Source: Ignavibacteria bacterium
GTDB lineage: Bacteria; Bacteroidota; Ignavibacteria; Kapaibacteriales; Kapaibacteriaceae
Direction: 5' to 3'
DNA length: 64,000 nt
NCBI GenBank assembly: GCA_016873895.1
Contig: VGVV01000002.1
Location: 314,152-378,151 of the forward strand
Of this stretch, positions 31 through 39,757 are shown in pieces. A program made the translations under genes and the position numbers. The notes beneath the pieces were generated by a model that did not search any database, was not told where the DNA came from, and saw only the letters and a program-made list of their open reading frames with translations. Numbering within the stretch: position 1 is the first letter of the stretch; each line of letters opens with the position of its first letter.

Positions 31-450
31 ATGTCTGCACAGATCGTAGACGTTGAATGGAAACATGATCTTACGTTCGACGCTCATCAACAGGGGCGTA
101 CATTCACGATCATGTCCAGTCCTACAGATGATCCAGAGCAACGGGCTGTGTCACCTAAGCAACTCCTTCTTACAGGGCTGGCAGGATGTACAGGACTCGA
201 CCTTGCCTCGCTGCTTCCTAAGATGCGTGTTCCGTTCAGCTCTCTTCGTGTAAGCATAGAGGCAACACTCTCAGAAGAGCATCCGAAAACATACGTGTCC
301 ATGCACATAGTCTACAGCGTGGGCTGCAGTCTTGAGCATTTGGAATCCGTAGAACGTGCCGTGGAGTTGTCGATTACGAAGTATTGTGGCGTATACGCGA
401 TGCTTGAAAAAGCCTCGCAGATCACCCATGAAGTACGGATCGAAGCATAG
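31..450 (+). CDS. OsmC/Ohr-family peroxiredoxin-like protein
   Basis: 139 aa ORF with conserved paired Cys (GLAGCTG ... SVGCSL) as in OsmC/Ohr hydroperoxide resistance proteins. Confidence 0.7.
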   Translation: MSAQIVDVEWKHDLTFDAHQQGRTFTIMSSPTDDPEQRAVSPKQLLLTGLAGCTGLDLASLLPKMRVPFSSLRVSIEATLSEEHPKTYVSMHIVYSVGCSLEHLESVERAVELSITKYCGVYAMLEKASQITHEVRIEA

Positions 451-1072
451 TGTCGATGTGGTCGTATGGCGCATAGCCATTCGACAGCATGTGCACGTTG
501 TCTTCGATTTCCAAGAGTAGGGTAGGGAAGCCCCCTATACCCAGCGAGCCAACATACTCAAACTCGTCTGCCACCGCGTCGTGTATCTCAGACGAATTCA
601 TAAGCTCTACGAATTCGTCTGATTCAATACCTACCTCTGAAGCCAGCTTGCGGTAGGTGTCTTCGTTGTTCAGATCCAAACCATCGGCGTAGAGAGCCCG
701 CTGCAGCCTGTGGCTAAATTCAAGTGTTAACTCGGGACGCAGCGCGCGCATGGTTTCAAGGGCTCTGGAAGGGGGCTCGCTATCGAGCACGATGTCCTGA
801 CGCGTAAGCAGCCCATGTAGAAACGAATCGCCAAAGGTAACGCCGGTAGTTTCCTCTACACGTTGGCGTGCCTCACTTATAGAGTCTGCCATTTCCGAGA
901 GTGCACGCGTGTTGTAGCCAGTTATCATGCCACCTGAATAGACTACAACCTCAAGGTGTTCAGACCATTCTTCTGCGATAAGCATAATTGTTGGACCGAA
1001 GCCATAGCACCATCCGCAGAGGGTGTCTTGGAAGTAATGCAGGGTAGGACGTTCTCGAAGTTCGGAGTTCAT
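422..1072 (-). CDS. DsbA-family (FrnE-like) thiol:disulfide oxidoreductase
   Basis: 216 aa; N-terminal CGWCY thioredoxin-fold active-site motif typical of the DsbA/FrnE family. Confidence 0.7.
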
Positions 1073-2304
1073 GCCGTTTGCAGTCTGGTGCGAAGTGCAG
1101 TATCGATCTCATCGAGAAACTCCTGTGTATACAAGTAGTGCTCGCCGTGATGTACCTTATTGCCATGTATGCACACGGCAAGGTCCTTCGTCATTTTGCC
1201 TTGCTCAACGATATCGATGCAGACGCGCTCGAGGGTGTGGCAAAAGTTTACCAACTCTTGGTTGCCATCGAGCTTGCCGCGAAACTCCAAGCCCCGCGTC
1301 CATGCAAAGATCGAGGCAATAGGATTCGTTGATGTAGGCTTACCGTGCTGATGGTCGCGGTAGTGGCGCGTAACGGTTCCGTGCGCAGCCTCAGCTTCTA
1401 TCGTTTTGCCGTCAGGGGTTACAAGAACCGACGTCATAAGCCCGAGCGATCCGAAGCCCTGCGCTACAGTATCGGATTGCACGTCGCCGTCGTAGTTCTT
1501 ACAAGCCCAGACAAAGTTGCCATTCCACTTTAACGCCGAGGCAACCATGTCATCGATAAGACGGTGTTCATAGGTTATGCCAGCAGCTTCGAATTGGGCC
1601 TTAAACTCGTTTACATAGATCTCTTCGAAGATGTCCTTGAAACGTCCGTCGTACTTCTTCAGGATAGTATTCTTCGTGCTCAAATACAATGGCCAGCCTT
1701 TACCGAGGGCCTGATTCATGCAAGCCCGCGCAAACCCCATGATAGACTCATCGGTGTTGTACATTGCCAGGGCAACGCCATCGCTTTTGAAGTTGTATAC
1801 TTCGAAGCTTTGTGGATTTGATCCATCTTCGGGTGTGAACGTTACGGTAAGCTTGCCTTTGCCCTTCGTAACAAAGTCTGTTGCTCTGTACTGGTCACCA
1901 AATGCATGGCGTCCGATGCATATCGGTGCAGTCCAATTGGGCACAAGCCTGGGAACGTTGCTACAAACGATCGGTTCGCGAAATACCGTACCATCGAGAA
2001 TGTTCCGTATAGTACCATTGGGAGACTTCCACATCTGCTTTAGACTAAATTCCTTTAGACGCGCTTCATCAGGCGTGATCGTAGCACACTTGATCCCAAC
2101 ATTGTATTGTTTGATTGCCTCTGCAGCGTCAATCGTTACTTGGTCGTTGGTTGCATCACGATATTCCATACCAAGATCGAAATACTTGATATCAAGCTCG
2201 AGATATGGCAGGATCAACTTGTCCTTGATGAACTTCCAAATAATACGCGTCATTTCATCTCCGTCGAGTTCAACGACGGGATTGGCCACGTGAATCTTAT
2301 TCAT
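1069..2304 (-). CDS. icd: NADP-dependent isocitrate dehydrogenase (monomer-of-dimer, ~410 aa type)
   Basis: 411 aa with strong IDH signatures (NPxxEL.., [13 protein letters not shown]-like blocks); overlaps upstream gene stop by 4 nt. Confidence 0.85.
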
Positions 2305-2346
2305 GTTTCGATTTCCTAGGTTTTCGAAAATTGGATACTCGATGTC

Positions 2347-2964
2347 TTAAAACGCGAACATAAGGCCTGCGGTGAACATCGAGACCTTATACTTGTTAAT
2401 GGAGTACTCAGTTGGCGGATTGCCGGCAGCGCTCGTCCATGTTTGCGGCTCAAAGACAGACGTTAACGGTAGAACATATCCGAGCAACAGGTCTATTCCA
2501 GAGATTGAGCTCATGCGCTCTACAAGGCGAAACCGCAGTGACCCGATTCCGTTGAATACCGCAGTGTTGTAACCTGCTAGAGACCCAGAGGCATTATCTC
2601 GTGTGCGGCTTCCGTTCTCAAATGTTAGACTGGCAGGTTCTTGCAAAGTTTCCGACTGCACATATCCAGCTGAGGCGATGATATAGCCATTGGCACCAAG
2701 ACCAAGCCAAACATTCTTCACGACAGGGTACTCAAACAACACGTCGATAGGCACGGTATGAAAGGTTACGTCGAGATTGTGCTGAAATACGGCATTAGCC
2801 GAGCCCTGCCCTGGAACAAAGACTCAATTGGTTGAAAATGATTCGAATGAAACAGGAAGCTGCGTATACCCAGTGCGTAACGAAAGCCGCAGGCCGTCGT
2901 CTGTACGTGGCAGGCTAGCTCCAATGAACCCTCCATAGCCGATACCGTTTGAGTTATTGATCCG
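2347..2964 (-). pseudogene. Degenerate paralog of the His-rich outer-membrane beta-barrel gene (4382..5290). It lacks the N-terminal third and carries an in-frame TGA at 2824-2826.
   Basis: The minus-strand translation reads ...NSNGIGYGGFIGASLPRTDDGLRLSLRTGYTQLPVSFESFSTN*VFVPGQGSANAVFQHNLDV...LMFAF. It aligns colinearly with SSKGIGYGFELAM...VAFESFSTEKAFTGGVVSGTALFRHTLDV...LGLAF of the intact copy. The TGA falls at a Lys position of that copy. No start codon or signal peptide is present. Confidence 0.5.
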
Positions 2965-4114
2965 TCAACAATGTTTGCGCTGGAAACAGAATTGTTAGCT
3001 AGAGTTGGATTCGGATACGTACCTGCCAGTGCGTCGCCCGCTGGACCACTTTGCGCTGTTGGTGCGATTGGAATCTGGTAGGCCGTAAGAACGCGTCCGG
3101 ATGAATCAACAGCGATAACAGCCGAATGTGTTGTTGATCCGTATTGTCCGGGGATAACTCCGGTTGGCACAAGCTTCTGGGTTGTAACGTTGTAGTCAAC
3201 AATCTTCGATGTAGTTACACTGTTATCAGCCAACTCGGTTGTTGTAACTGCTGCACGCGCAATCTTTTCGGTCGTGATTACACCATTCTTAATCGTTGGT
3301 GCTGGATAGAATCCGGTAAGCTCTCCACCTCCTGCGCCACCAAGAGGCACGCCAATGATTGGAACTTGCTCTGCAAACGTAACGCGGCCTTGTTCGTCAA
3401 CACGAAGTACCGTGCTCGAATTCGAAGAACCGAAAGGTCCGAGCGGGCCGTTGTGCATTTCCTGCAATTGAGCTGCCCCAACTGTATTGTCGTCAATCTT
3501 GAGGTTTAACGCATTGAGAGGTCCGCTTACGGTAATGTCTGATCCAGCTCGTGATGCAGTCCCTTGAATGCGAGCAGCATTGATCGCAGTGGTGCCGGTG
3601 TTGTTGATTACACCGATCAGCACATCGCCCATGTTGTTTGATGGGTTGTTGATGGACTTGCGGATGGAATCAGCAACCTCGCGAGTAACGGACGAGGCGA
3701 TCTCAGCAGACTTTGCGTTTAATGCATTCAAAGCATATGGCACGGCTGTTAAAAACACACGCGGAGCAATTTCGGCCCGACTGTTGATGGACGTTCCCAT
3801 CCACAGATGCTGATCAAATGAGATGTTTAGTGGAGTTTTCTCTCCGAGTATCACACCAAAGACGCCGCCACTGGTTGTAACGGTATGGCGCTCGGTCCAA
3901 ATGCCCGATCCAGCCGTAGCGTTCGTGTACAGAGTGAGATCACCTGTCCATACACAGTCACATACGGGAATGCCAGTTGTATCAATCAGCACACCTTGGT
4001 ACGTAATTATTTTTTCGGAATACCTTGTTGTGCGGAAACGCCGCTCGTTGCAAGGACTAACAAAAGACTCATACACACCGCTGACAGGCAGCAACTGAGA
4101 GACAAAACAGACAT
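2766..4114 (-). CDS. Paralog of the large cell-surface repeat protein (6212..7981), disrupted. The signal peptide (4007..4114) is in a different frame from the mature domain, and the 3' end runs out of frame into the degenerate barrel paralog.
   Basis: The mature region aligns to 6212..7981 (EKIITYQGVLIDTTG / RQISYQGIIYDATG; ISFDQHLWMGTSINSRAEIAPRVFLTAVPYALNA / VNFNQHLWLSLSVNGRTELAPRTFLTAVPYALNA). The signal peptide MSVLSLSCCLSAVCMSLLLVLATSGVSAQQGIPKK* terminates at an A6 run. A seventh A would restore GIPKKIITYQG. Confidence 0.5.
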
Positions 4115-4381
4115 ACCTAACCCCTGAGAGAAATGACCTTGTAATCCCGCTTGGATGAGCACTATCTACTAAATGTTGCTATGAGTGCGGTTCGCGGGAA
4201 CGCCGCAAAACTATACTGCACGGGGCTAGACTTTGCACTGCATGGTGTGGATAACACAGCGTAGTCATACACCAAGTATACTATGGCTGTGATGATTGTG
4301 CAGTGATGAACAGTATCTGTCCAAACGAAAAGGGCACCCAATTATGGATGCCCTTGTTGGAGTAGCGATGTGTCTTGTGAA

Positions 4382-5290
4382 CTAGAACGCGAGACCTAAT
4401 CCAGCGGATATCATTGCTACGGTGTATGAGTCTATATAAAATTGCGCTGGCGGATTACCATACATGCCACTCCACTTGTGTGGGTTGAACAACGGCTGCA
4501 GCGGCAATGAGTAGCGACCAAAGATGTCAACGCCGATCGTACCGATCTGCTTTTCAACCAAGCGTATACGCGCAGAGCCTGTAGCGCTAAAAACAAAATC
4601 GTTGTTGCCACGCACGTAGCCATTTCGATCGAGACGCGTACGAGTGCCACTTTCAAACACAAGATTGGATGGCTCTTCCAACGTTTCAGTTTGATGATAT
4701 CTGCCAGTAGCGAAGAAGTTTCCATCTAGGCCGAGGCCAAGAAAGAAGCCACCAAACAAGGGGTACTCCATGCGAGCCCCAAAGGTGACTACTGACCATG
4801 ATACATCGAGTGTATGACGGAACAGCGCGGTTCCCGAGACAACGCCTCCAGTGAACGCCTTCTCGGTTGAGAAGGATTCGAATGCAACAGGCATGTGCTG
4901 ATAGCCAACGTGTGGAGTTACCACAAATCCGTCGGCCGATACTGGAGTGGTCATGGCAAGTTCGAATCCGTACCCTATGCCCTTGCTGCTAGTAAAGCCA
5001 GTGCAACAGTTCTCAACAGGTGGCAGTGAATTGAATGAGCCATTGTGAGCGGCCTGTGTTCCAAAAACACTAAGGCTTATCTCGTCGTGGCTATGCTTCT
5101 TGCCATGATTGTGCACATGCTCATGATCATCTGCGAGCTCATGTACATGCGCATGATCATGAGGCTGGGAATTCTGCGTGGCATGCTCGTGCTGATGGTT
5201 GTCGTGATCGACAGGGACCGTCTGGGCCTGCATGCTCACCGAGAGTGCAGCATAAGCACAGACAACAACAGTTGATAGGAGTTTTATCAT
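4382..5290 (-). CDS. Outer-membrane beta-barrel protein with a His-rich (metal-binding-like) N-terminal segment
   Basis: It has a signal peptide (MIKLLSTVVVCAYAALSVSMQAQ). The His/Asp/Glu-rich tract is HDNHQHEHATQNSQPHDHAHVHELADDHEHVHNHGKKHSHDE. The C-terminus is the aromatic LGLAF, as in OM barrels. Its start overlaps the upstream gene by 4 nt (ATGA). Confidence 0.6.
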   Translation of the reverse strand: MIKLLSTVVVCAYAALSVSMQAQTVPVDHDNHQHEHATQNSQPHDHAHVHELADDHEHVHNHGKKHSHDEISLSVFGTQAAHNGSFNSLPPVENCCTGFTSSKGIGYGFELAMTTPVSADGFVVTPHVGYQHMPVAFESFSTEKAFTGGVVSGTALFRHTLDVSWSVVTFGARMEYPLFGGFFLGLGLDGNFFATGRYHQTETLEEPSNLVFESGTRTRLDRNGYVRGNNDFVFSATGSARIRLVEKQIGTIGVDIFGRYSLPLQPLFNPHKWSGMYGNPPAQFYIDSYTVAMISAGLGLAF

Positions 5291-6192
5291 GGTAGTTTCA
5301 CCATAATAGTCCGTACAACATCGTTATCTGTATAGATAGCAACGGTATATGATCCAGCAGGTATTACCTGCAGCTCAACCGAGGTAAGAGGCCATGTAGA
5401 GCCCGCCTCAACACGTTCGGCTGTATAGATAACGTTGCCGTGGACATCTGTAATAACGAGCGTGCCTGTCTGCTGCCGCTCAGAGTATGTCCGCATTGTG
5501 AATGATGACCCTGTAACAGGGTTAGGTGCAATCATTACTGCCATCTTGGATGGATCTTTGAGAAGGCGCGTTGATCCGTACGTGTTGCAGAGCCCGCGAA
5601 GTGTTACAGCCCCTGCTGTGGATTGGATAAACTGACGTTGTGCATCCTTCCAGCGGAAGGACTCAACGCGCACGTCTGTTGTAGAGTCATTGCCCAAACG
5701 CCCCATCAATAGCAGGCGAGCAATCACCCCTCCATTTGTTGTGGCTGTTCCTGAAACAGTAATAGTGTACCGATCTCCATCATCAACAAGCGAATCATAG
5801 CGAAGGGGCTCTAAAACTGTCCGATTGAAACTCACCTTGAGTTCCCAATCGCGAGACGTTGTGCTTGTTTGGAACAGTGCACATGATGCCGCGTATGTAA
5901 CATCGAGAGCGAATGTGTCGCCGATTTGCTTAACAACACTATCGATGCCAAGTAGCGTAGACTCGTAGTACTTCTGTACAGCATTGCCGTGACTGATGAT
6001 GCCAGAGCGTACGATTGGATCTAGTCCATTTTCGCCAACCATTGGCAAACCAACAGCCCCCTGCACACCGTAATCTCCTAGCATCGTGGAGCTCGTTGTT
6101 CCGCTCGTGATTGCACCACTGACTACGATCTGACTTTGCAGCACAGATGTGACTGTGCAAAGCAGACTGGCTATGATAAATAGATGTTTCAT
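5287..6192 (-). CDS. Secreted protein with a T9SS C-terminal sorting domain (Por_Secre_tail-like)
   Basis: It has a signal peptide. The C-terminal ~80 aa (IAPNPVTGSSFTMRTY...VITDVHGNVIYTAERVEAGSTWPLTSVELQVIPAGSYTVAIYTDNDVVRTIMVKLP) fits the T9SS type-A CTD pattern. Confidence 0.65.
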   Translation of the reverse strand: MKHLFIIASLLCTVTSVLQSQIVVSGAITSGTTSSTMLGDYGVQGAVGLPMVGENGLDPIVRSGIISHGNAVQKYYESTLLGIDSVVKQIGDTFALDVTYAASCALFQTSTTSRDWELKVSFNRTVLEPLRYDSLVDDGDRYTITVSGTATTNGGVIARLLLMGRLGNDSTTDVRVESFRWKDAQRQFIQSTAGAVTLRGLCNTYGSTRLLKDPSKMAVMIAPNPVTGSSFTMRTYSERQQTGTLVITDVHGNVIYTAERVEAGSTWPLTSVELQVIPAGSYTVAIYTDNDVVRTIMVKLP

Positions 6193-6211
6193 AGGTAGTG
6201 GTTCCAGAAGA

Positions 6212-7960
6212 TTAAGTGGTTGCCATCAAGACCCATTTACCCAATGTTCCAGAGTAAATGAATGTGATCGATTGGTTGTTACCAATTGTCTTGTTCGCAA
6301 CCCCTAGGATCAATTGATTGTCAGCGGCAGAGCGAGCATCTTCATTTTGGAACGTTATGTCCTTAGTCGACTGATTGATGATAATGATCACACGACCGTT
6401 TGCACCGTTTTGGAAACCCGTCACGTCTGCAGCCTGATTAGCATTTATCATGCGGAAAAAGGCATGCCCAGAGATGTTGATGTTATTGACAACGGTAGTA
6501 GTGCCTTTTAACTGATTGATGTCGATGGCAGTACCTTCACCCAAAATCAATTGCTTGATATTTTCGGTAGGGTTTGCAGGAATCCACTTGTTCGAGTCAG
6601 CATCAAAAATCAACGCGTCCCCATCATTGGGATTTAACACCGGATCTACTGCTTTTCCACCAATCGAGGCTGCTGTCGCGGTAACAGCAGCAGGCTTCCA
6701 TGTATTTGCTGTTGCATCCCACGTAAGAACTTGGTTGTTCGCTGGGGCTGCAGCAGCTACTGCTCTACCTTGAAGACCGTCAACCGTCGGATTAGGATAT
6801 GACCCGTCTAAGTCACCGCCGGCAGCACCGGTAGGTGCTGCGCCTGTAATTGTCACATTCTGTGCTAATGCAATGCGGCCGTTAGCGTCAACAGTAAACT
6901 GACCGACTTGCGTGCCAGAACCGTAAACACCAGCTGTGACACCGGTCGTGCTCATTTTCGCACCAGTAACTGCACCATCAGCGAGCTTTGCTGAAATGAT
7001 TGACCCCGCCGCAAGTTTTGCAGCAGTGACGGAGCTGTCAGCAAGTTTTGGTGTGGTTACTGAGTTGGCAGCCAACTTAGCAGCAGTTACAGAGCTGTCA
7101 GCAAGTTTAACTGTGGTAACAGAGTTGGCAGCGAGCTTTGCTGCCGTAACTGAACTGTCGGCAATCTTAGACGTGGTTACAGAGTTAGCCGCAAGTTTGA
7201 TCCCAGTAATAGTGCTATCGGCAATCTTCGCAGCTGTTACTGCATTATTGGCAATTGTTGGGTTTGGATATGTTCCAGCAAGGTCTCCACCGGCTGCACC
7301 ACTTGGGCTAACCCCAGAAATTGGCACTTGCGTGGCCGTAACAACGCGTCCCTGTGGATCAATAGTAATGACGGCCGATTCTGTTGCAGAGCCTATGGGG
7401 CCTATTGTTCTGGGGTGAATCTCTTCTAACTCTATTGCGCCAATTGTGTTAGGCCTAATTGTAAGGTTCATGCTATCAAGGCTGCCCGACACGTCGATGT
7501 CCGAGCCAGCAACTGCGGCAAGGCGGCCACGAATCTTGAAGACTACCGAATCAGCCACGTCATTTGCCATTCCCGACATATTCGACCACTCTGCATTGAG
7601 TGCGTACGGAACAGCAGTCAGGAATGTGCGTGGTGCCAGCTCGGTTCTGCCATTTACTGATAAACTGAGCCAGAGATGCTGATTAAAGTTGACGTTAAGG
7701 GGCGAGTTGTTGCCGAGCACTACGCTAAACATGCCAGATTTTGTCTGGATCGTGTGGCGCTCAAACCAAACAGGTGCTCCGCCGGCTGCCAGGTTGTACA
7801 TTGCAAAGTCCACAATGTATGTGCTGTCACACGCTGCAATGCCTGTCGCGTCGTAGATAATGCCTTGGTAAGAAATCTGCCTCGGAATGCCAGGCTGGGC
7901 GTTCGTTGCCACACCCAAAACAAGTAATGCAACGACGAGTACGCCAAGTTGTTTGCACAT
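6212..7960 (-). CDS. Large cell-surface repeat protein (adhesin or fibre-like) that contains about ten copies of a 10-aa xKLAxxSVTx repeat
   Basis: 589 aa ORF whose likely start is Met8 (MCKQLGVLVVALLVLGVATNAQ signal peptide). It is Gly/Thr/Ala-rich with AGTYPNPT motifs. It is paralogous to 2766..4094. Confidence 0.6.
   Translation of the reverse strand: MCKQLGVLVVALLVLGVATNAQPGIPRQISYQGIIYDATGIAACDSTYIVDFAMYNLAAGGAPVWFERHTIQTKSGMFSVVLGNNSPLNVNFNQHLWLSLSVNGRTELAPRTFLTAVPYALNAEWSNMSGMANDVADSVVFKIRGRLAAVAGSDIDVSGSLDSMNLTIRPNTIGAIELEEIHPRTIGPIGSATESAVITIDPQGRVVTATQVPISGVSPSGAAGGDLAGTYPNPTIANNAVTAAKIADSTITGIKLAANSVTTSKIADSSVTAAKLAANSVTTVKLADSSVTAAKLAANSVTTPKLADSSVTAAKLAAGSIISAKLADGAVTGAKMSTTGVTAGVYGSGTQVGQFTVDANGRIALAQNVTITGAAPTGAAGGDLDGSYPNPTVDGLQGRAVAAAAPANNQVLTWDATANTWKPAAVTATAASIGGKAVDPVLNPNDGDALIFDADSNKWIPANPTENIKQLILGEGTAIDINQLKGTTTVVNNINISGHAFFRMINANQAADVTGFQNGANGRVIIIINQSTKDITFQNEDARSAADNQLILGVANKTIGNNQSITFIYSGTLGKWVLMATT
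6955..7255. repeat. Intragenic 30-nt (10-codon) tandem repeat, about 10 copies, encoding (A/S)KLA(D/A)(S/N)SVT(T/A)
   Basis: The same motif recurs at 30/60-nt spacing in the DNA (gcagcaagttttg...acagagttggcagc...). In the protein it reads KLADSSVTAAKLAANSVTT x4-5. Confidence 0.6.
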
Positions 7961-8235
7961 GCTGTAGAACTGTGAACTCATGCCTATAACTCCATGATGA
8001 GTAAAGTTTGTAATCGCATTTAAGACAAGTGGGGATAAAATACGGTTTTATCGTCCGTATGCAATTATCCACATGAAGCCTTGGTTATTCCACATTTATT
8101 CACAACTGTGGAAATCTATACTGTGAAACTGTTGCGAGGTTCGTCAGGAAATGCTAAGTAGTTGTAAAATATTATTGTTGAGAGTTTCTACAGCGCGGGA
8201 GCACTGCTGTGCACATGCGAATCACCATAGCAATA

Positions 8236-8260: not shown

Positions 8261-8293
8261 TATCCAACTCTTACTTGTGGGTAACAATATCAG

Positions 8294-8367
8294 CGGCCTC
8301 GAGAGGATTCGAACCTCCGACCCACGCTTTAGGAAAGCGTCGCTCTATCCGGCTGAGCTACGAGGCC
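8294..8367 (-). tRNA. tRNA-Arg (anticodon CCT)
   Basis: GGCCTCGTAGCTCAGCCGGATAGAGCGACGCTTTCCTAAAGCGTGGGTCGGAGGTTCGAATCCTCTCGAGGCCG folds into a cloverleaf with a 7-bp acceptor stem and a T-loop TTCGAAT. The anticodon loop is TTCCTAA. Confidence 0.85.
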
Positions 8368-8385
8368 TTAAGATGATTACAGATT

Positions 8386-8515
8386 ACCAGTTACTAATGA
8401 CTAATGACTAATTACGAATTACCAATGACCAATTACCAATGACCAATTACTGACTGGGTGTCGCTCAATTTACCAATGGTAACTCGTCATTCGTCATTAG
8501 TCATTCGTACCTGAC
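8386..8515. repeat. Repeat-rich intergenic element. It has 14-bp direct repeats (aattaccaatgacc x2.5) and TAATGAC heptamers, with an inverted copy (gtcattcgtcattagtcattcg) forming a long imperfect palindrome.
   Basis: Read directly from the sequence: actaatgactaatgac (8392-8407) pairs with gtcattagtcatt (8495-8507). The nearly palindromic ttaccaatggtaa lies at 8470-8482. Confidence 0.5.
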
Positions 8516-18170: not shown

Positions 18171-18196
18171 GAAGATGTACCTCTGACTGGTAGTTT

Positions 18197-19600
18197 CTAC
18201 CAACCGCCACCAAGTGCCTTGTAAAGCCGGACGTATGCCCTGTACTGATTTGCCTTTGCCGAGATATACGCACGTTGCGCATCTAGCAGGCTTCGTTGTG
18301 CGTCGAGAACCTGTAGGTATGTCGTTGCACCAAATCGATATCGTAACTGCGAAAGCCGCGCAACTTCCGTCACAGACACAAGGCCAAGTTTGGCGGCGGC
18401 GATCTGATTGCCACCGTTGGTGATTGCAGCAACGGCATCATTCACATCGCGCAGAGCTGCGAGGACTGCGTTCTTGTATGCCAGTTCAGCTTGCAGTGCC
18501 TGGGCGTTTGCGCCATCAACACGAGCTGCGTTTCTTCCTGCATTAAAGATTGGTTGTGCTATGTTCCCAGCGAATTGATAGGCAAAGGAACCGGGATCAA
18601 AGAGATTGGCTGAAGAGATACTCTGCAATCCAATATCGCCCGAGAGTGCCACGCGTGGGAATTGCTGAGCAACTGCCACCCCTATATCAGATGTTGCTGC
18701 TTCAAGTTCATATTCGGCAAGTTGAACATCTGGTCTGCGCTCAAGCAGCTGACCGGGCAAACCTGTAGGCAAGGTTGTAGGTACGACAAGATCATCTACA
18801 GCCCGACCCCGCTCTACCGGCGCACCAGGCGGTCGTGCGAGCAGAATATTCAATGCATTTTCTGTTTGTTCAATTGCTGCTACAGTAGGTGCAAGGAGAA
18901 CCTCAATACGATGTAACTCAGACTCTGCTTGTCGACAATCAAGTTCTGATGTCTTGCCCTTTTCAAACAATAGTTTAGCAAGTGTTAGGTATTCCTTGCG
19001 GTTTGCAATGTTGGAATCAAGTCTTTCCTTTACAGCATCTAACTCACGAATGGTGATATATGCTTCGGCTACTGATGCAATCAGACCCAGAGTTGCTGCT
19101 CGATTTCCCGCGTAGCTAGCCGAAAGGCGGGCACGTTGTGCATCGGTGCCCCTTGCGATGCGACCAAACACATCGATTTCCCAGTTCAAGAGGGCTGAAA
19201 CCCCAAAAAAGCCCTGCAGATTTGAAAAGAAAGATGCTGGCTGGTTCGGATATCTGTTCTGAGATGGCTTGGTTTCAGAAGCACCAAATGCAACGTCCGC
19301 ATTGGGGTACCATTGTGATTCTTGAATTGTTACGATGGACTTGGCTTGATCAATACGCGCTAGAGTTGCTTGCAGATCATAGTTCTGGTCTATTGCCAGG
19401 ACAATGTATCGGTTAAGTACACTGTCTTCGAAAATCTCGTAGTACTTCATGTCGGCCAGCGACTTGTCCTGGGCCGTTATGCCGCGATACGTTGTTGGCA
19501 TAGCGATTTCGGGACGTCGATAGTCTGGGCCAAGTTTACATGATGTTACAAGTAGAGACGTTAGTACCGCTGCAACTATGGATGTTAAAAGGCTACGCAT
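18197..19600 (-). CDS. Efflux transporter outer-membrane factor (TolC/NodT family) lipoprotein
   Basis: Two-repeat OEP architecture. The start MRSLLTSIVAAVLTSLLVTSC carries a lipobox and overlaps the RND gene end by 8 nt. Confidence 0.8.
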   Translation of the reverse strand: MRSLLTSIVAAVLTSLLVTSCKLGPDYRRPEIAMPTTYRGITAQDKSLADMKYYEIFEDSVLNRYIVLAIDQNYDLQATLARIDQAKSIVTIQESQWYPNADVAFGASETKPSQNRYPNQPASFFSNLQGFFGVSALLNWEIDVFGRIARGTDAQRARLSASYAGNRAATLGLIASVAEAYITIRELDAVKERLDSNIANRKEYLTLAKLLFEKGKTSELDCRQAESELHRIEVLLAPTVAAIEQTENALNILLARPPGAPVERGRAVDDLVVPTTLPTGLPGQLLERRPDVQLAEYELEAATSDIGVAVAQQFPRVALSGDIGLQSISSANLFDPGSFAYQFAGNIAQPIFNAGRNAARVDGANAQALQAELAYKNAVLAALRDVNDAVAAITNGGNQIAAAKLGLVSVTEVARLSQLRYRFGATTYLQVLDAQRSLLDAQRAYISAKANQYRAYVRLYKALGGGW

Positions 19601-27921: not shown

Positions 27922-29498
27922 TGAAGACCAAGAGTACACCCGTACGCGTTGTTGCGCTAGGTGGTGGATATGCAACGATCAATGTTCTCAAGTCTCTGAA
28001 GGGACACATTGCCTCTGGACGCGTCCATTTGACCGTGATCGACAAGAATAACTACCACGTGTTTCATGGATTGGTCGCCGAGATGCTTACCGGCAAGATT
28101 CAGCCGGGTAATATCACATCTCCGGCCAGAATGGTGTTCCGTGGTGCAGACTTTCATAATGCGGAAGTGCTGCATGTTGATTTTCAACATAAGCGCGTAA
28201 CAACTCGACGCTACCTCGATGGACATCAGCATACCGTAGAATACGATCATCTGGTGATAGGACTTGGCTCGCGAGATAATCTCTCCCGCTACACGGGTGT
28301 TGCTCAGAACACATTTCGACTAAAATCATACTGGGATGTGTTTGAGCTGAAGAATCACATCACTGGCATTCTTGAGCTTGCAGAGATAGAAACCGACCCC
28401 ATCGAACGTGAGCGACTACTCACGTTTGTGATTGCTGGCGGAAATTTTGCTGGTGTGGAAGTTGCCACAGAGCTTGATGAGTTTCTCGAGTATCTCACTA
28501 AGCACTACTACCCACGACTGCGCTACGAGGAGATGCGCATCATCCTTCTCAGCGGTGATAAGACCATCCTACCGGAGCTTGCAAAGCGTCAGCCGCGACT
28601 CGTGCGTTATGCTTCACGATTTATCGCAGAAAAGACGCGTATCTCGGTGCACCTCGAAACCTATATTTCTGCTGCAACACCGATGAGTGCCACAACAAGC
28701 ACTGGATTAGAGTTTCAAGCACGAACGATCATCTCCTGCACAGGCAATGCTCAACCGGAGATCTTTGATCAATGGTCGTTTGAACGCGATCCTGTGGGCA
28801 GACTCATCACAGATGCAACGTTACGTCTCGTTGGTCAAGAGCATGTATGGTCGGGTGGCGATTGCGCTGCTGTGCCAAGTCCCCAAGGAGGGTATTGTCC
28901 GGGTCTTGCACTATACGCCATCAAGGCTGGTGAGCATATCGGACGCAACATCGCAAGGATGATCGATGGTAAGCCCCTTACCCCATTTTCATTTAAGGGG
29001 CTTGGAGATGCATGTTCATTGGGCAGACGCAATGCTGTTGGGCATCTCTACGGGATAGGATTTACCGGCTTTCTTGCGTTCGTTACATGGCGGCTCTTCA
29101 TGCTCAAGTATCTGCCTGTGTGGAATAGACGAATACGGACAATGTCGAACTGGCTCATGTGGCCACTCATTGGACGTGACATCACGAGTATTCGATCCAA
29201 CGATGCCACACAGGTGAGAGAGCGTTTGTTCCAACCCGGACAAACGATCTATCTAGAGGGAGAAACCGGTAACTGCATGTACCTCATACGCGAAGGCAGC
29301 GTTGATGCCTATCAAGACGGCACATTGCTTCAGACGCTGGGTCCGGGAAGCTACTTTGGCGAGTTAGCAATCTTCAACGAAACAACGAGGTCTCGCACCA
29401 TCGTCGCAACCACAGAAGTACGTGTGCTCGAGATCCAGCGTGAAATGGCAAAGCTGTTGCGCCGGCACTTTGAGCCAAAAACTATTAAGCCCTTGTAA
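27921..29498 (+). CDS. Type-II NADH dehydrogenase (NDH-2, FAD pyridine-nucleotide disulfide oxidoreductase) with a C-terminal cyclic-nucleotide-binding domain
   Basis: It has two Rossmann GxGxxG/A motifs (VVALGGGYAT, FVIAGGNFAGVE). The C-terminal ~120 aa form a canonical cNMP-binding domain (FQPGQTIYLEGETGNCMYLIREGSVDAY...FGELAIFNETTRSRTIVA). Its start overlaps the upstream stop (TAATG). Confidence 0.75.
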   Translation: MKTKSTPVRVVALGGGYATINVLKSLKGHIASGRVHLTVIDKNNYHVFHGLVAEMLTGKIQPGNITSPARMVFRGADFHNAEVLHVDFQHKRVTTRRYLDGHQHTVEYDHLVIGLGSRDNLSRYTGVAQNTFRLKSYWDVFELKNHITGILELAEIETDPIERERLLTFVIAGGNFAGVEVATELDEFLEYLTKHYYPRLRYEEMRIILLSGDKTILPELAKRQPRLVRYASRFIAEKTRISVHLETYISAATPMSATTSTGLEFQARTIISCTGNAQPEIFDQWSFERDPVGRLITDATLRLVGQEHVWSGGDCAAVPSPQGGYCPGLALYAIKAGEHIGRNIARMIDGKPLTPFSFKGLGDACSLGRRNAVGHLYGIGFTGFLAFVTWRLFMLKYLPVWNRRIRTMSNWLMWPLIGRDITSIRSNDATQVRERLFQPGQTIYLEGETGNCMYLIREGSVDAYQDGTLLQTLGPGSYFGELAIFNETTRSRTIVATTEVRVLEIQREMAKLLRRHFEPKTIKPL

Positions 29499-29534
29499 CT
29501 ATTTGAGCTACAAGGGCTTAACGTTTGTCGGTCG

Positions 29535-29607
<73 letters not shown>

Positions 29608-29644
29608 ATAGGGAGCACGAAGATACACAAAAAATCGTAAGGCA

Positions 29645-29770
29645 CAAGGTACGAGGTACAAGGTACAAGGTACGAGGTACGAGGTACGAGGTACGAGGTA
29701 CAAGGTTCTAGGTACGAGGTACAAGGTACGAGGTACGAGGTACAAGGTTCTATGTACGAGGTACAGGGTA
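29645..29770. repeat. Octanucleotide tandem repeat, GGTACGAG/GGTACAAG, about 15 copies
   Basis: Read directly from the sequence. It sits 40 bp upstream of tRNA-fMet, in the divergent tRNA/pheT intergenic region. Confidence 0.85.
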
Positions 29771-29949
29771 AGGGATGTGTTCCGTCATTCCCACGAAAGG
29801 ACGTCACCACAGAGAAAGCGGTGGCGGGAAACCTGGAGAGCCTTGTATCCGGTACCTAGTCCCTAGTACCTCCTCCCGGTTCTTGTGCAAAACTCCAACC
29901 GACCCTATGCTCTTGCTGCGACTATCTTTGTCGTTGATTAATAGAGAGT

Positions 29950-38744: not shown

Positions 38745-38977
38745 CCTGACCTCTTTAAACAGGATACAATAGTGTTACTGTGTTTGCGTGATTTAGACGG
38801 CATAAGTCACCTACGTTCTGCGGATGGCAAACATACGAAAGCCCCTTATTCTGCACAACCTTAGCCGTGGCCATGGCATCTAATTCCTATCTTTGTGGTT
38901 CGTTACGTATTGGAGGAAGAGTGACCTGGTCCAAGGAATCGATCTCAGTCCAGGAGCAACAAGTGCAACTGTCGCTC

Positions 38978-39757
38978 ATGAATTCTGGTCGCATGCCAAA
39001 GCATGTGGCAGTTATCATGGATGGCAATGGCCGATGGGCAGAAGAGCGTGGCAAACCGCGATTTGAGGGGCACCGAGAGGGCATGGAGCGCGTGCGCTCT
39101 ACCGTGAAGACATGCTCCAAGCTCGGCGTGTCCTACCTTACACTGTATGCGTTTTCCATCGAGAATTGGAAGCGCCCTGTGCCAGAAGTGCGTTTTCTGA
39201 TGTCACTTTTGGAATCCTACCTTGTACGAGAGGTCGACGAACTAGATGCCAACAACGTGCGAATCTGCGCCATCGGAAAGATAAATGCACTACCCAAAGC
39301 CGTGCAGAAGATTCTGCAGTCTGCCATGGAGCGCACAAAAAAGAATGATGGTCTTACATTAACACTAGCGCTTAGCTATGGGTCGCGTTGGGACATCCAA
39401 CGGGCGGTGCAGGTAATGGCAATGGATGTTCGCAGAGGCAAGCTATCTCCCGAGGACCTTACTGAGCAGACACTTGCTAGTTATCTGCAGACTTCTGGAA
39501 TGCCTGATCCTGACTTAATCATCCGAACGAGTGGAGAGATGCGCTTGAGCAATTTTCTTCTCTGGGAGGCGGCATATGCAGAGTTGTACGTAACAGAAAC
39601 ACTCTGGCCTGAGTTTACAGAGCAAGAGCTCTACAAGGGGCTTGCCAGCTATGTTTTGCGTGAACGCCGTTTTGGTAAGACATCTGCCCAGGTGCAACCT
39701 GAGAGCCAAGCGCAGTCACGATCTACTCTGGAACGGATTCTTGATGCGCTTACGTAA
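38978..39757 (+). CDS. uppS: Undecaprenyl diphosphate synthase
   Basis: HVAVIMDGNGRWA and LTLYAFSIENWKRP are present, with C-terminal RFG. The start was chosen about 20 aa before the DGNGRWA motif. Confidence 0.85.
   Translation: MNSGRMPKHVAVIMDGNGRWAEERGKPRFEGHREGMERVRSTVKTCSKLGVSYLTLYAFSIENWKRPVPEVRFLMSLLESYLVREVDELDANNVRICAIGKINALPKAVQKILQSAMERTKKNDGLTLTLALSYGSRWDIQRAVQVMAMDVRRGKLSPEDLTEQTLASYLQTSGMPDPDLIIRTSGEMRLSNFLLWEAAYAELYVTETLWPEFTEQELYKGLASYVLRERRFGKTSAQVQPESQAQSRSTLERILDALT

Follow-up and report, generated by a model that had tools for sequence, protein, structure and literature searches.

Does a short run of adenines between a signal peptide and the body of a putative surface protein act as an on/off switch, or does it mark a gene that is decaying? 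The question is posed by minus-strand positions 2347-4114 of a 64,000-nucleotide stretch of DNA (hereafter the window), for which a first-pass annotation had proposed phase variation by homopolymer slippage, with a sequencing or assembly indel and a fixed pseudogene as alternatives. Our analysis indicates that this segment is very probably a decaying remnant of a second paralogous gene cassette, A'-B'-C', and an ordinary pseudogene.

Frame break and downstream lesions

On the minus strand, a 35-codon signal peptide runs from the ATG at 4114 to an in-frame TAA at 4009-4007, and the A6 run (plus-strand T6, 4010-4015) abuts this TAA on its 5' side. The minus-strand reading, ATG(4114) ... CAA CAA GGT ATT CCG AAA AAA TAA, gives MSVLSLSCCLSAVCMSLLLVLATSGVSAQQGIPKK and then a stop, and the homologous domain is carried onward in the -1 frame by ORF 2766..4094 (...(K)IITYQGVLIDTTG). 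Signal-peptide ORF, stop, A6 run and -1 continuation are all, in coordinates and sequence, exactly as the first-pass annotation gave them. At the same junction, an intact paralog (6212..7981) reads ...AQPGIPRQISYQG, or in a fuller stretch ...AQPGIPRQISYQGIIYDATG. The elements of the locus are given below, L022 being the contig with the intact ortholog and L023 a relative with cassette A-B-C.

1069..2304, minus strand: isocitrate dehydrogenase (IDH) gene, directly downstream of the remnant; syntenic anchor
2347..2955, minus strand: remnant of the outer-membrane beta-barrel gene C', equivalent to aa 101-307 of the L022 ortholog
2824..2826, minus strand: in-frame TGA within the C' remnant, FSTN*VF versus FSTNPVY in the L022 ortholog
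2950..2958, minus strand: deletion junction, where A'-side homology stops and C'-side homology starts
2956..4006, minus strand: A' mature-region remnant in the -1 frame, with the N-terminal beta-rich domain and first fibre repeats
4007..4015, minus strand: A6 + TAA lesion, the frame being mended by +1 nt or -2 nt; A6 in all 18 loci
4010..4114, minus strand: A' signal-peptide coding segment by alignment, from ATG 4114 to AAA AAA at 4015-4010
4382..7981, minus strand: intact reference cassette A-B-C, conserved in L023
4382-5290, minus strand: C, 302-aa outer-membrane protein (OMP)
5287-6192, minus strand: B, 301 aa, with a T9SS-type C-terminal sorting domain
6212-7981, minus strand: A, fibre-like protein of 589 aa

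Inserting one A into the A6 run opens the frame, as had been proposed, but the resulting junction, IPKKIITYQG, is one residue longer than that of every homolog examined, and the claimed match to the paralog fails by that residue. All seven homologous sequences conform to P-x-x-[ILV]-[ST]-YQG (IPRQISYQG, IPRQITYQG, IPKKVTYQG, IPHTLSYQG, IPPTLSYQG, IPRTISYQG and TPRVISYQG). Taking out 2 nt (TA) instead yields IPKKITYQG, an exact fit to the family consensus spacing. Because the 2-nt removal fits the family junction and the added A does not, the lesion at 4007-4015 may be a +2 insertion rather than a -1 slip; the frame break may have arisen either by such a gain (TA) or in two steps, a gain of 3 nt and then a slip from A7 to A6. 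The ortholog DNA at this junction, CCA AAG AAG GTC ACC, is free of homopolymers (read in L019, to which L022 is 96-99% identical). The signal peptide of the A' remnant also has no basic residue ahead of its hydrophobic core, where each of the four aligned homologs has one, a weak additional sign of possible decay.

Further lesions lie downstream. In tblastn searches of 2300-4200, the alignment of intact A (589 aa) ends at about window position 2952, and intact C matches from residue 96 to its end (aa 96-302) starting at about 2970, in a frame other than that of the A match and with one internal stop. No counterpart of B (5287-6192) was found by the same search of this interval. Amino-acid identity of the remnant to the in-window paralogs is 38-42%. 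Since A homology ends where C homology begins in another frame, the C-terminal ~60 residues of ORF 2766..4094 represent a wrong-frame reading of C'. The C' remnant has neither a start codon nor a signal peptide, and its frame differs from that of A'. We considered the A'-C' junction as a functional autotransporter-like fusion and rejected it, as the two parts lie in different frames and the barrel part contains an internal stop.

Restoring the frame at the A6 run affords a product of 449 aa (+1) or 448 aa (-2). The 449-aa version consists of the 35-aa signal peptide, 354 genuine mature residues and 60 junk residues; the genuine portion amounts to 22% of the mature L022 ortholog, and the C-terminal domain strongly conserved between A and that ortholog is missing. 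The "mature surface protein" of the first-pass annotation is thus homologous at its N-terminal domain but represents only the first ~22% of a gene, ending in an out-of-frame tail. Public gene calls place two "hypothetical proteins" at 2347-4114 (408/436 aa and 124-135 aa), a region that would best be marked as a pseudogene remnant.

An intact ortholog and a relative without the second cassette

A homolog search with the repaired protein, combined with a metagenome scan, led to the related metagenome contig L022 (Ga0157604_1251178), the single locus that the scan returned. An exact DNA search with 53 nt around the A-run gave no match in a reference-genome collection, which therefore does not include the locus of this species. 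In L022, A' (nt 75-4925) is one ORF of 1,616 aa in which the signal peptide passes unbroken into the domain (AQQGIPKKVTYQG; ...ATSYAQQGIPKKVTYQGVLIDTTG...), and behind it lie B' (312 aa, ending in a T9SS-type sorting tail), C' (a 307-aa OMP) and IDH. The sister locus L019 was set aside as reference ortholog in favor of L022, relative to which it has 49-bp and 9-bp deletions of its own. The base-level correspondence between the window and L022 is as follows.

Window 4037-3172: L022 149-1012, 74% nucleotide identity
Absent from the window: L022 1013-1507, 495 nt in frame, a repeat-number difference
Window 3177-2956: L022 1508-1729
Window ~2950-2958: jump to L022 C' residue 101, the deletion junction
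Window 2304-1325: L022 6725-7704, IDH, 79% nucleotide identity

The A' remnant at 2956..4006 is accordingly matched by L022 nt 149-1012 and 1508-1729 (A' aa ~25-552 minus the in-frame 495 nt), and the retained parts are 68% identical to A' and 53% identical to C' at the amino-acid level. Absent from the window are ~4.3 kb, corresponding to L022 nt 1730 to ~6054 (A' aa 553-1616, the complete B' gene and C' aa 1-100); the fibre gene's share of this loss is 1,064 codons.

The IDH gene follows C' in L022 and C in L023, which is the closest named genome by this anchor (a Ca. Kapaibacterium sp. MAG, IDH 93% identical). L023 shares the slot of the window, FA desaturase-YbeY-DUF494-A-B-C-IDH-DsbA, and its A, B and C proteins are 62%, 71% and 70% identical to those of the window's intact cassette. 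The gap between C and IDH is only 267 bp in L023, and the second cassette is therefore absent there. Overall, this cassette is intact in L022, half-deleted in the window and gone from L023, and we infer that it is dispensable because the intact paralogous cassette A-B-C remains.

These direct observations support the pseudogene that the first-pass annotation had listed as an alternative. The remnant, placed between cassette A-B-C and the IDH gene, very probably derives from a cassette like the intact one of L022, whose products are a secreted, fibre-like protein of 1,616 aa, a protein with a T9SS tail and a beta-barrel of the outer membrane. The copy in this population carries no fewer than three disabling lesions: the frame break at the signal-peptide/N-terminal-domain junction beside the A6 run, the ~4.3-kb deletion that joins A' codon ~552 out of frame to C' codon ~101, and the TGA in the C' stub. 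As any tract length yields no functional product, the A6 run is not a switch; it is just the site where one of several inactivating mutations fell. Like ordinary bacterial pseudogenes, the locus has an intact homolog elsewhere, several independent lesions that are fixed in the population at consensus level, a relative from which it is altogether missing and a functional paralogous cassette next door. It differs in nothing essential, its decay being recent enough to have left conservation at the codon level unharmed. The frameshift is real but ordinary, and the locus is of use chiefly as a correction: a frameshift beside a short homopolymer in a surface-protein gene mimics a contingency locus, and here the surroundings point to plain decay. 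It also provides a dated snapshot of the elimination of a redundant fibre/T9SS/OMP cassette, which is intact, half-deleted or gone across close relatives.

Some observations count against the pseudogene reading, in that the remnant still resembles a gene under constraint. The dN/dS of the remnant versus the L022-type ortholog is 0.065 (dN 0.117; dS ~1.8, which is saturated), and a relative-rate test found 12-16 window-specific versus 10-12 amino-acid changes (p>0.3), with no excess on the window branch. The remnant has 2 SNP sites in 1.8 kb, the same density as its flanks. No signal of relaxed selection was seen by dN/dS, relative rate or SNP density. Low dN/dS and a normal rate would fit recent inactivation, and by themselves are no proof of lost function. 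From the low dN/dS, the lack of rate acceleration and the flank-like SNP density, decay appears to be recent compared with the divergence from the lineage of L022.

Population data and competing readings

Exact-protein lookups of the neighboring intact genes gathered 18 loci on 15 distinct contigs, from 15 sample accessions (10 JGI Ga01941xx samples, one ENA assembly and four Logan runs). The label of Ga0194133, "K_Offshore_40m", suggests that the samples belong to one freshwater lake series. Across the 18 loci, identity over window positions 2300-4400 is 99.9-100% without a single gap; the consensus sequences from JGI, ENA and Logan assemblies, in which a minority A7 subpopulation could be hidden, all have the A6 run. 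The protein cluster of the broken ORF holds nine sequences from ~46 contigs, every one of 408 or 436 aa; one member, MBM4178366.1 (NCBI), comes from an "Ignavibacteria bacterium" MAG. The in-frame products of 449 aa (+1) and 448 aa (-2) were absent from the ~15 billion proteins searched. A heptanucleotide array at ~8370-8440, 4 kb away, serves as a positive control: it has an extra unit in 6 of 16 assemblies of the same set, so these assemblies can reveal variation in repeat length.

The array itself comprises ~ten degenerate 7-nt units (minus strand GGTAATT GGTCATT ... AGTCATT AGTCATT ...) just 5' of a tRNA-Arg(CCT) gene (8293-8367, minus strand), in its presumed promoter region. A sigma-70 promoter scan was uninformative for an organism of the FCB group.

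A reversible switch, in which slipped-strand mispairing between A6 and A7 toggles a surface protein on and off, would account for several features. The frame break abuts a homopolymer, one added A joins the signal peptide to the conserved N-terminal domain, the remnant shows no accumulated amino-acid decay, and the fibre-like family is probably surface-exposed, a class often phase-variable in other bacteria. Simple-sequence contingency genes of Campylobacter, Neisseria and Haemophilus likewise carry a homopolymer at a frame break near the 5' end of a putative surface gene (PMC6321876). Unlike their poly-G/C and poly-A/T tracts, the present run is only 6 nt long, unconserved and non-polymorphic, with no full-length product and with its partner genes destroyed. 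It falls far short of the PhasomeIt cut-off for poly-A/T of at least 10 (at least 7 for poly-G/C; PMC6321876), and A/T runs of at least 6 occur at chance frequency in the 64-kb window (49.8% GC), with 19 observed versus ~24 expected from composition. The ortholog has AAG AAG GTC in place of the tract, no length variation exists at consensus level among 15 contigs and ~46 contig records, and no "on" product is found among 15 billion proteins, even though the 7-nt polymorphism 4 kb away is captured. Moreover, the "on" state would have a junction one residue beyond the family consensus, would be short of 1,064 residues, among them the conserved C-terminal domain, and would add a 60-aa out-of-frame tail; of its partners, B' is deleted and C' is truncated and carries a TGA. 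All 15 contigs have the same interrupted frame together with other disabling mutations, the outcome that the first-pass annotation had itself named as speaking against a switch. We consider phase variation at this site very unlikely.

The two remaining readings are less probable still. Under the first, the frame is in truth unbroken and the indel reflects a miscounted homopolymer, a common class of error that is relevant to a metagenome-derived window. However, 15 distinct contigs, drawn from 15 sample accessions by way of three assembly pipelines, agree on A6 and on the whole locus without a gap, and independent large-scale lesions cannot be homopolymer errors. Apart from this locus, coding sequence makes up 89% of the window and no further split gene occurs in the 64 kb; together with the repeat-length variation that the assemblies do capture, this rules out systematic homopolymer error, and the suggestion of a sequencing or assembly indel has next to no credibility. 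Programmed -1 ribosomal frameshifting or transcriptional slippage on the A-run might instead produce a functional, secreted short protein with the N-terminal domain and a few repeats. Slippage of tRNA-Lys on AAA AAA adjoining a stop codon is mechanistically possible, the remnant has a low dN/dS, and the downstream 91 nt fold at -27.3 kcal/mol (z = -2.2), a structure signal that is marginal, with 6 of 200 shuffles as good. Against this, G AAA AAA departs from the canonical X XXY YYZ heptamer, and A6 is short for transcriptional slippage. The ortholog is a plain continuous ORF in which the recoding site is not conserved, and the final 60 residues of the product would be read from another gene in the wrong frame. 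Recoding therefore strikes us as exceedingly improbable, and the pseudogene remnant is the reading that we adopt.

The fibre family and the fate of related cassettes

Intact relatives of A share a layout of signal peptide, conserved beta-rich N-terminal domain, long repeats and C-terminal beta-sandwich. The repeats are DUF5907-like, with the motif (A/G)GGDL(T/A)GTYPNP. Sequence searches of Pfam, NCBIfam and PDB gave just weak or borderline matches (DUF5907, Phage_depo_C, Bdello_MAT_N and Por_Secre_tail). The C-terminus of paralog A scores 25.3 bits against Pfam Phage_depo_C (cut-off 25), and NCBIfam NF053851 Bdello_MAT_N matches L022 A' with 35.1 bits (E 1e-8) and A with 19.5 bits, where the cut-off is 60. 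In an AlphaFold2 monomer model of paralog A (mean pLDDT 53.6), only the N-terminal domain is confident: residues ~30-125 are beta-rich at pLDDT 80-95, and the fibre region lies below 50. Foldseek comparison of this model with PDB returned no significant match (best E 0.027).

These features recall the mosaic adhesive trimer (MAT) fibres of Bdellovibrio bacteriovorus, in which a conserved ~130-aa beta-rich domain, reported without a PDB homologue, lies right behind the signal peptide and the tips are variable (PMC10769870). Like MATs, A and its 1,616-aa A' ortholog combine a signal peptide, a beta-rich domain of ~100-130 aa, a long fibre and a C-terminal beta-sandwich (PMC10769870), and the N-terminal domain of A is confidently predicted to be beta-rich and has no PDB homologue. 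In contrast to MATs, the Bdello_MAT_N scores of A' and A fall below the curated cut-off (35 versus 60 bits), the host is of Kapabacteria/Ignavibacteria type in the FCB group rather than Bdellovibrio, the repeats are DUF5907-like, and the cassette is shared with a T9SS-tailed protein and an OMP. We regard this likeness as resemblance rather than membership; trimer formation and adhesion are putative.

Fibre genes of the family encode 589 aa (window A, 6212-7981), ~990 aa (L023 A, 4891-7869) and 1,616 aa (L022 A', 75-4925). Because lengths differ so greatly, and because the window remnant and L022 differ by 495 nt in frame, the repeat region is evidently plastic, as judged from these gene comparisons.

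Of the five A'-type loci compared, four are either inactivated or gone, no two of them in the same manner, and L022 alone is intact.

Window: frameshift, 4.3-kb deletion and TGA
L019: 49-bp frameshifting deletion relative to L022, its 96-99% identical sister
L020: in-frame TAG in place of a conserved Lys
L023: cassette absent

A more speculative and rather doubtful extension is that freshwater populations of Kapabacteria-like organisms have lost the A'-type fibre cassette repeatedly and independently, making it a hot spot of loss, perhaps through selection. If so, selection would favor the shedding or turnover of a MAT-like fibre at the surface, such as one serving as a phage receptor, amounting to a population-level "switching by gene loss" rather than simple-sequence phase variation.

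Individual loci merit brief description. In L019, the 49-bp deletion at ~650 (versus L022 653-693) is flanked by a 9-nt overlap, and a 9-bp in-frame deletion lies at ~290; these could reflect either strain-level inactivation or an artefact of a 1.1-kb contig. In L020, an A'-type homolog from another metagenome (ENA GROS21 scaffold), TAG at 2456-2458 replaces the Lys of the family (VTTE*LRPTGV), and the fibre ORF runs on in the same frame for at least 517 codons past it; the TAG could be a nonsense mutation, an error or a site of readthrough.

Elsewhere in the window, a strong terminator-like hairpin (4330-4355, minus strand), with an 11-bp stem and a T-rich tail, lies directly 3' of gene C. 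Given the position of this hairpin, the A' remnant would once have had its own upstream region (4115-4330). The intact OMP C (4382-5290) has a strikingly His-rich N-terminal stretch at residues ~28-70 (HDNHQHEHATQNSQPHDHAHVHELADDHEHVHNHGKKHSHDE), which suggests metal binding; the stretch is missing from the C' ortholog in L022. No Rfam families besides tRNA were found across the whole window. Its largest stretches without an ORF of at least 90 aa are 28251-29949, 18171-19137 and 38865-39641, the first of which contains a tRNA-Met gene at 29534-29607.
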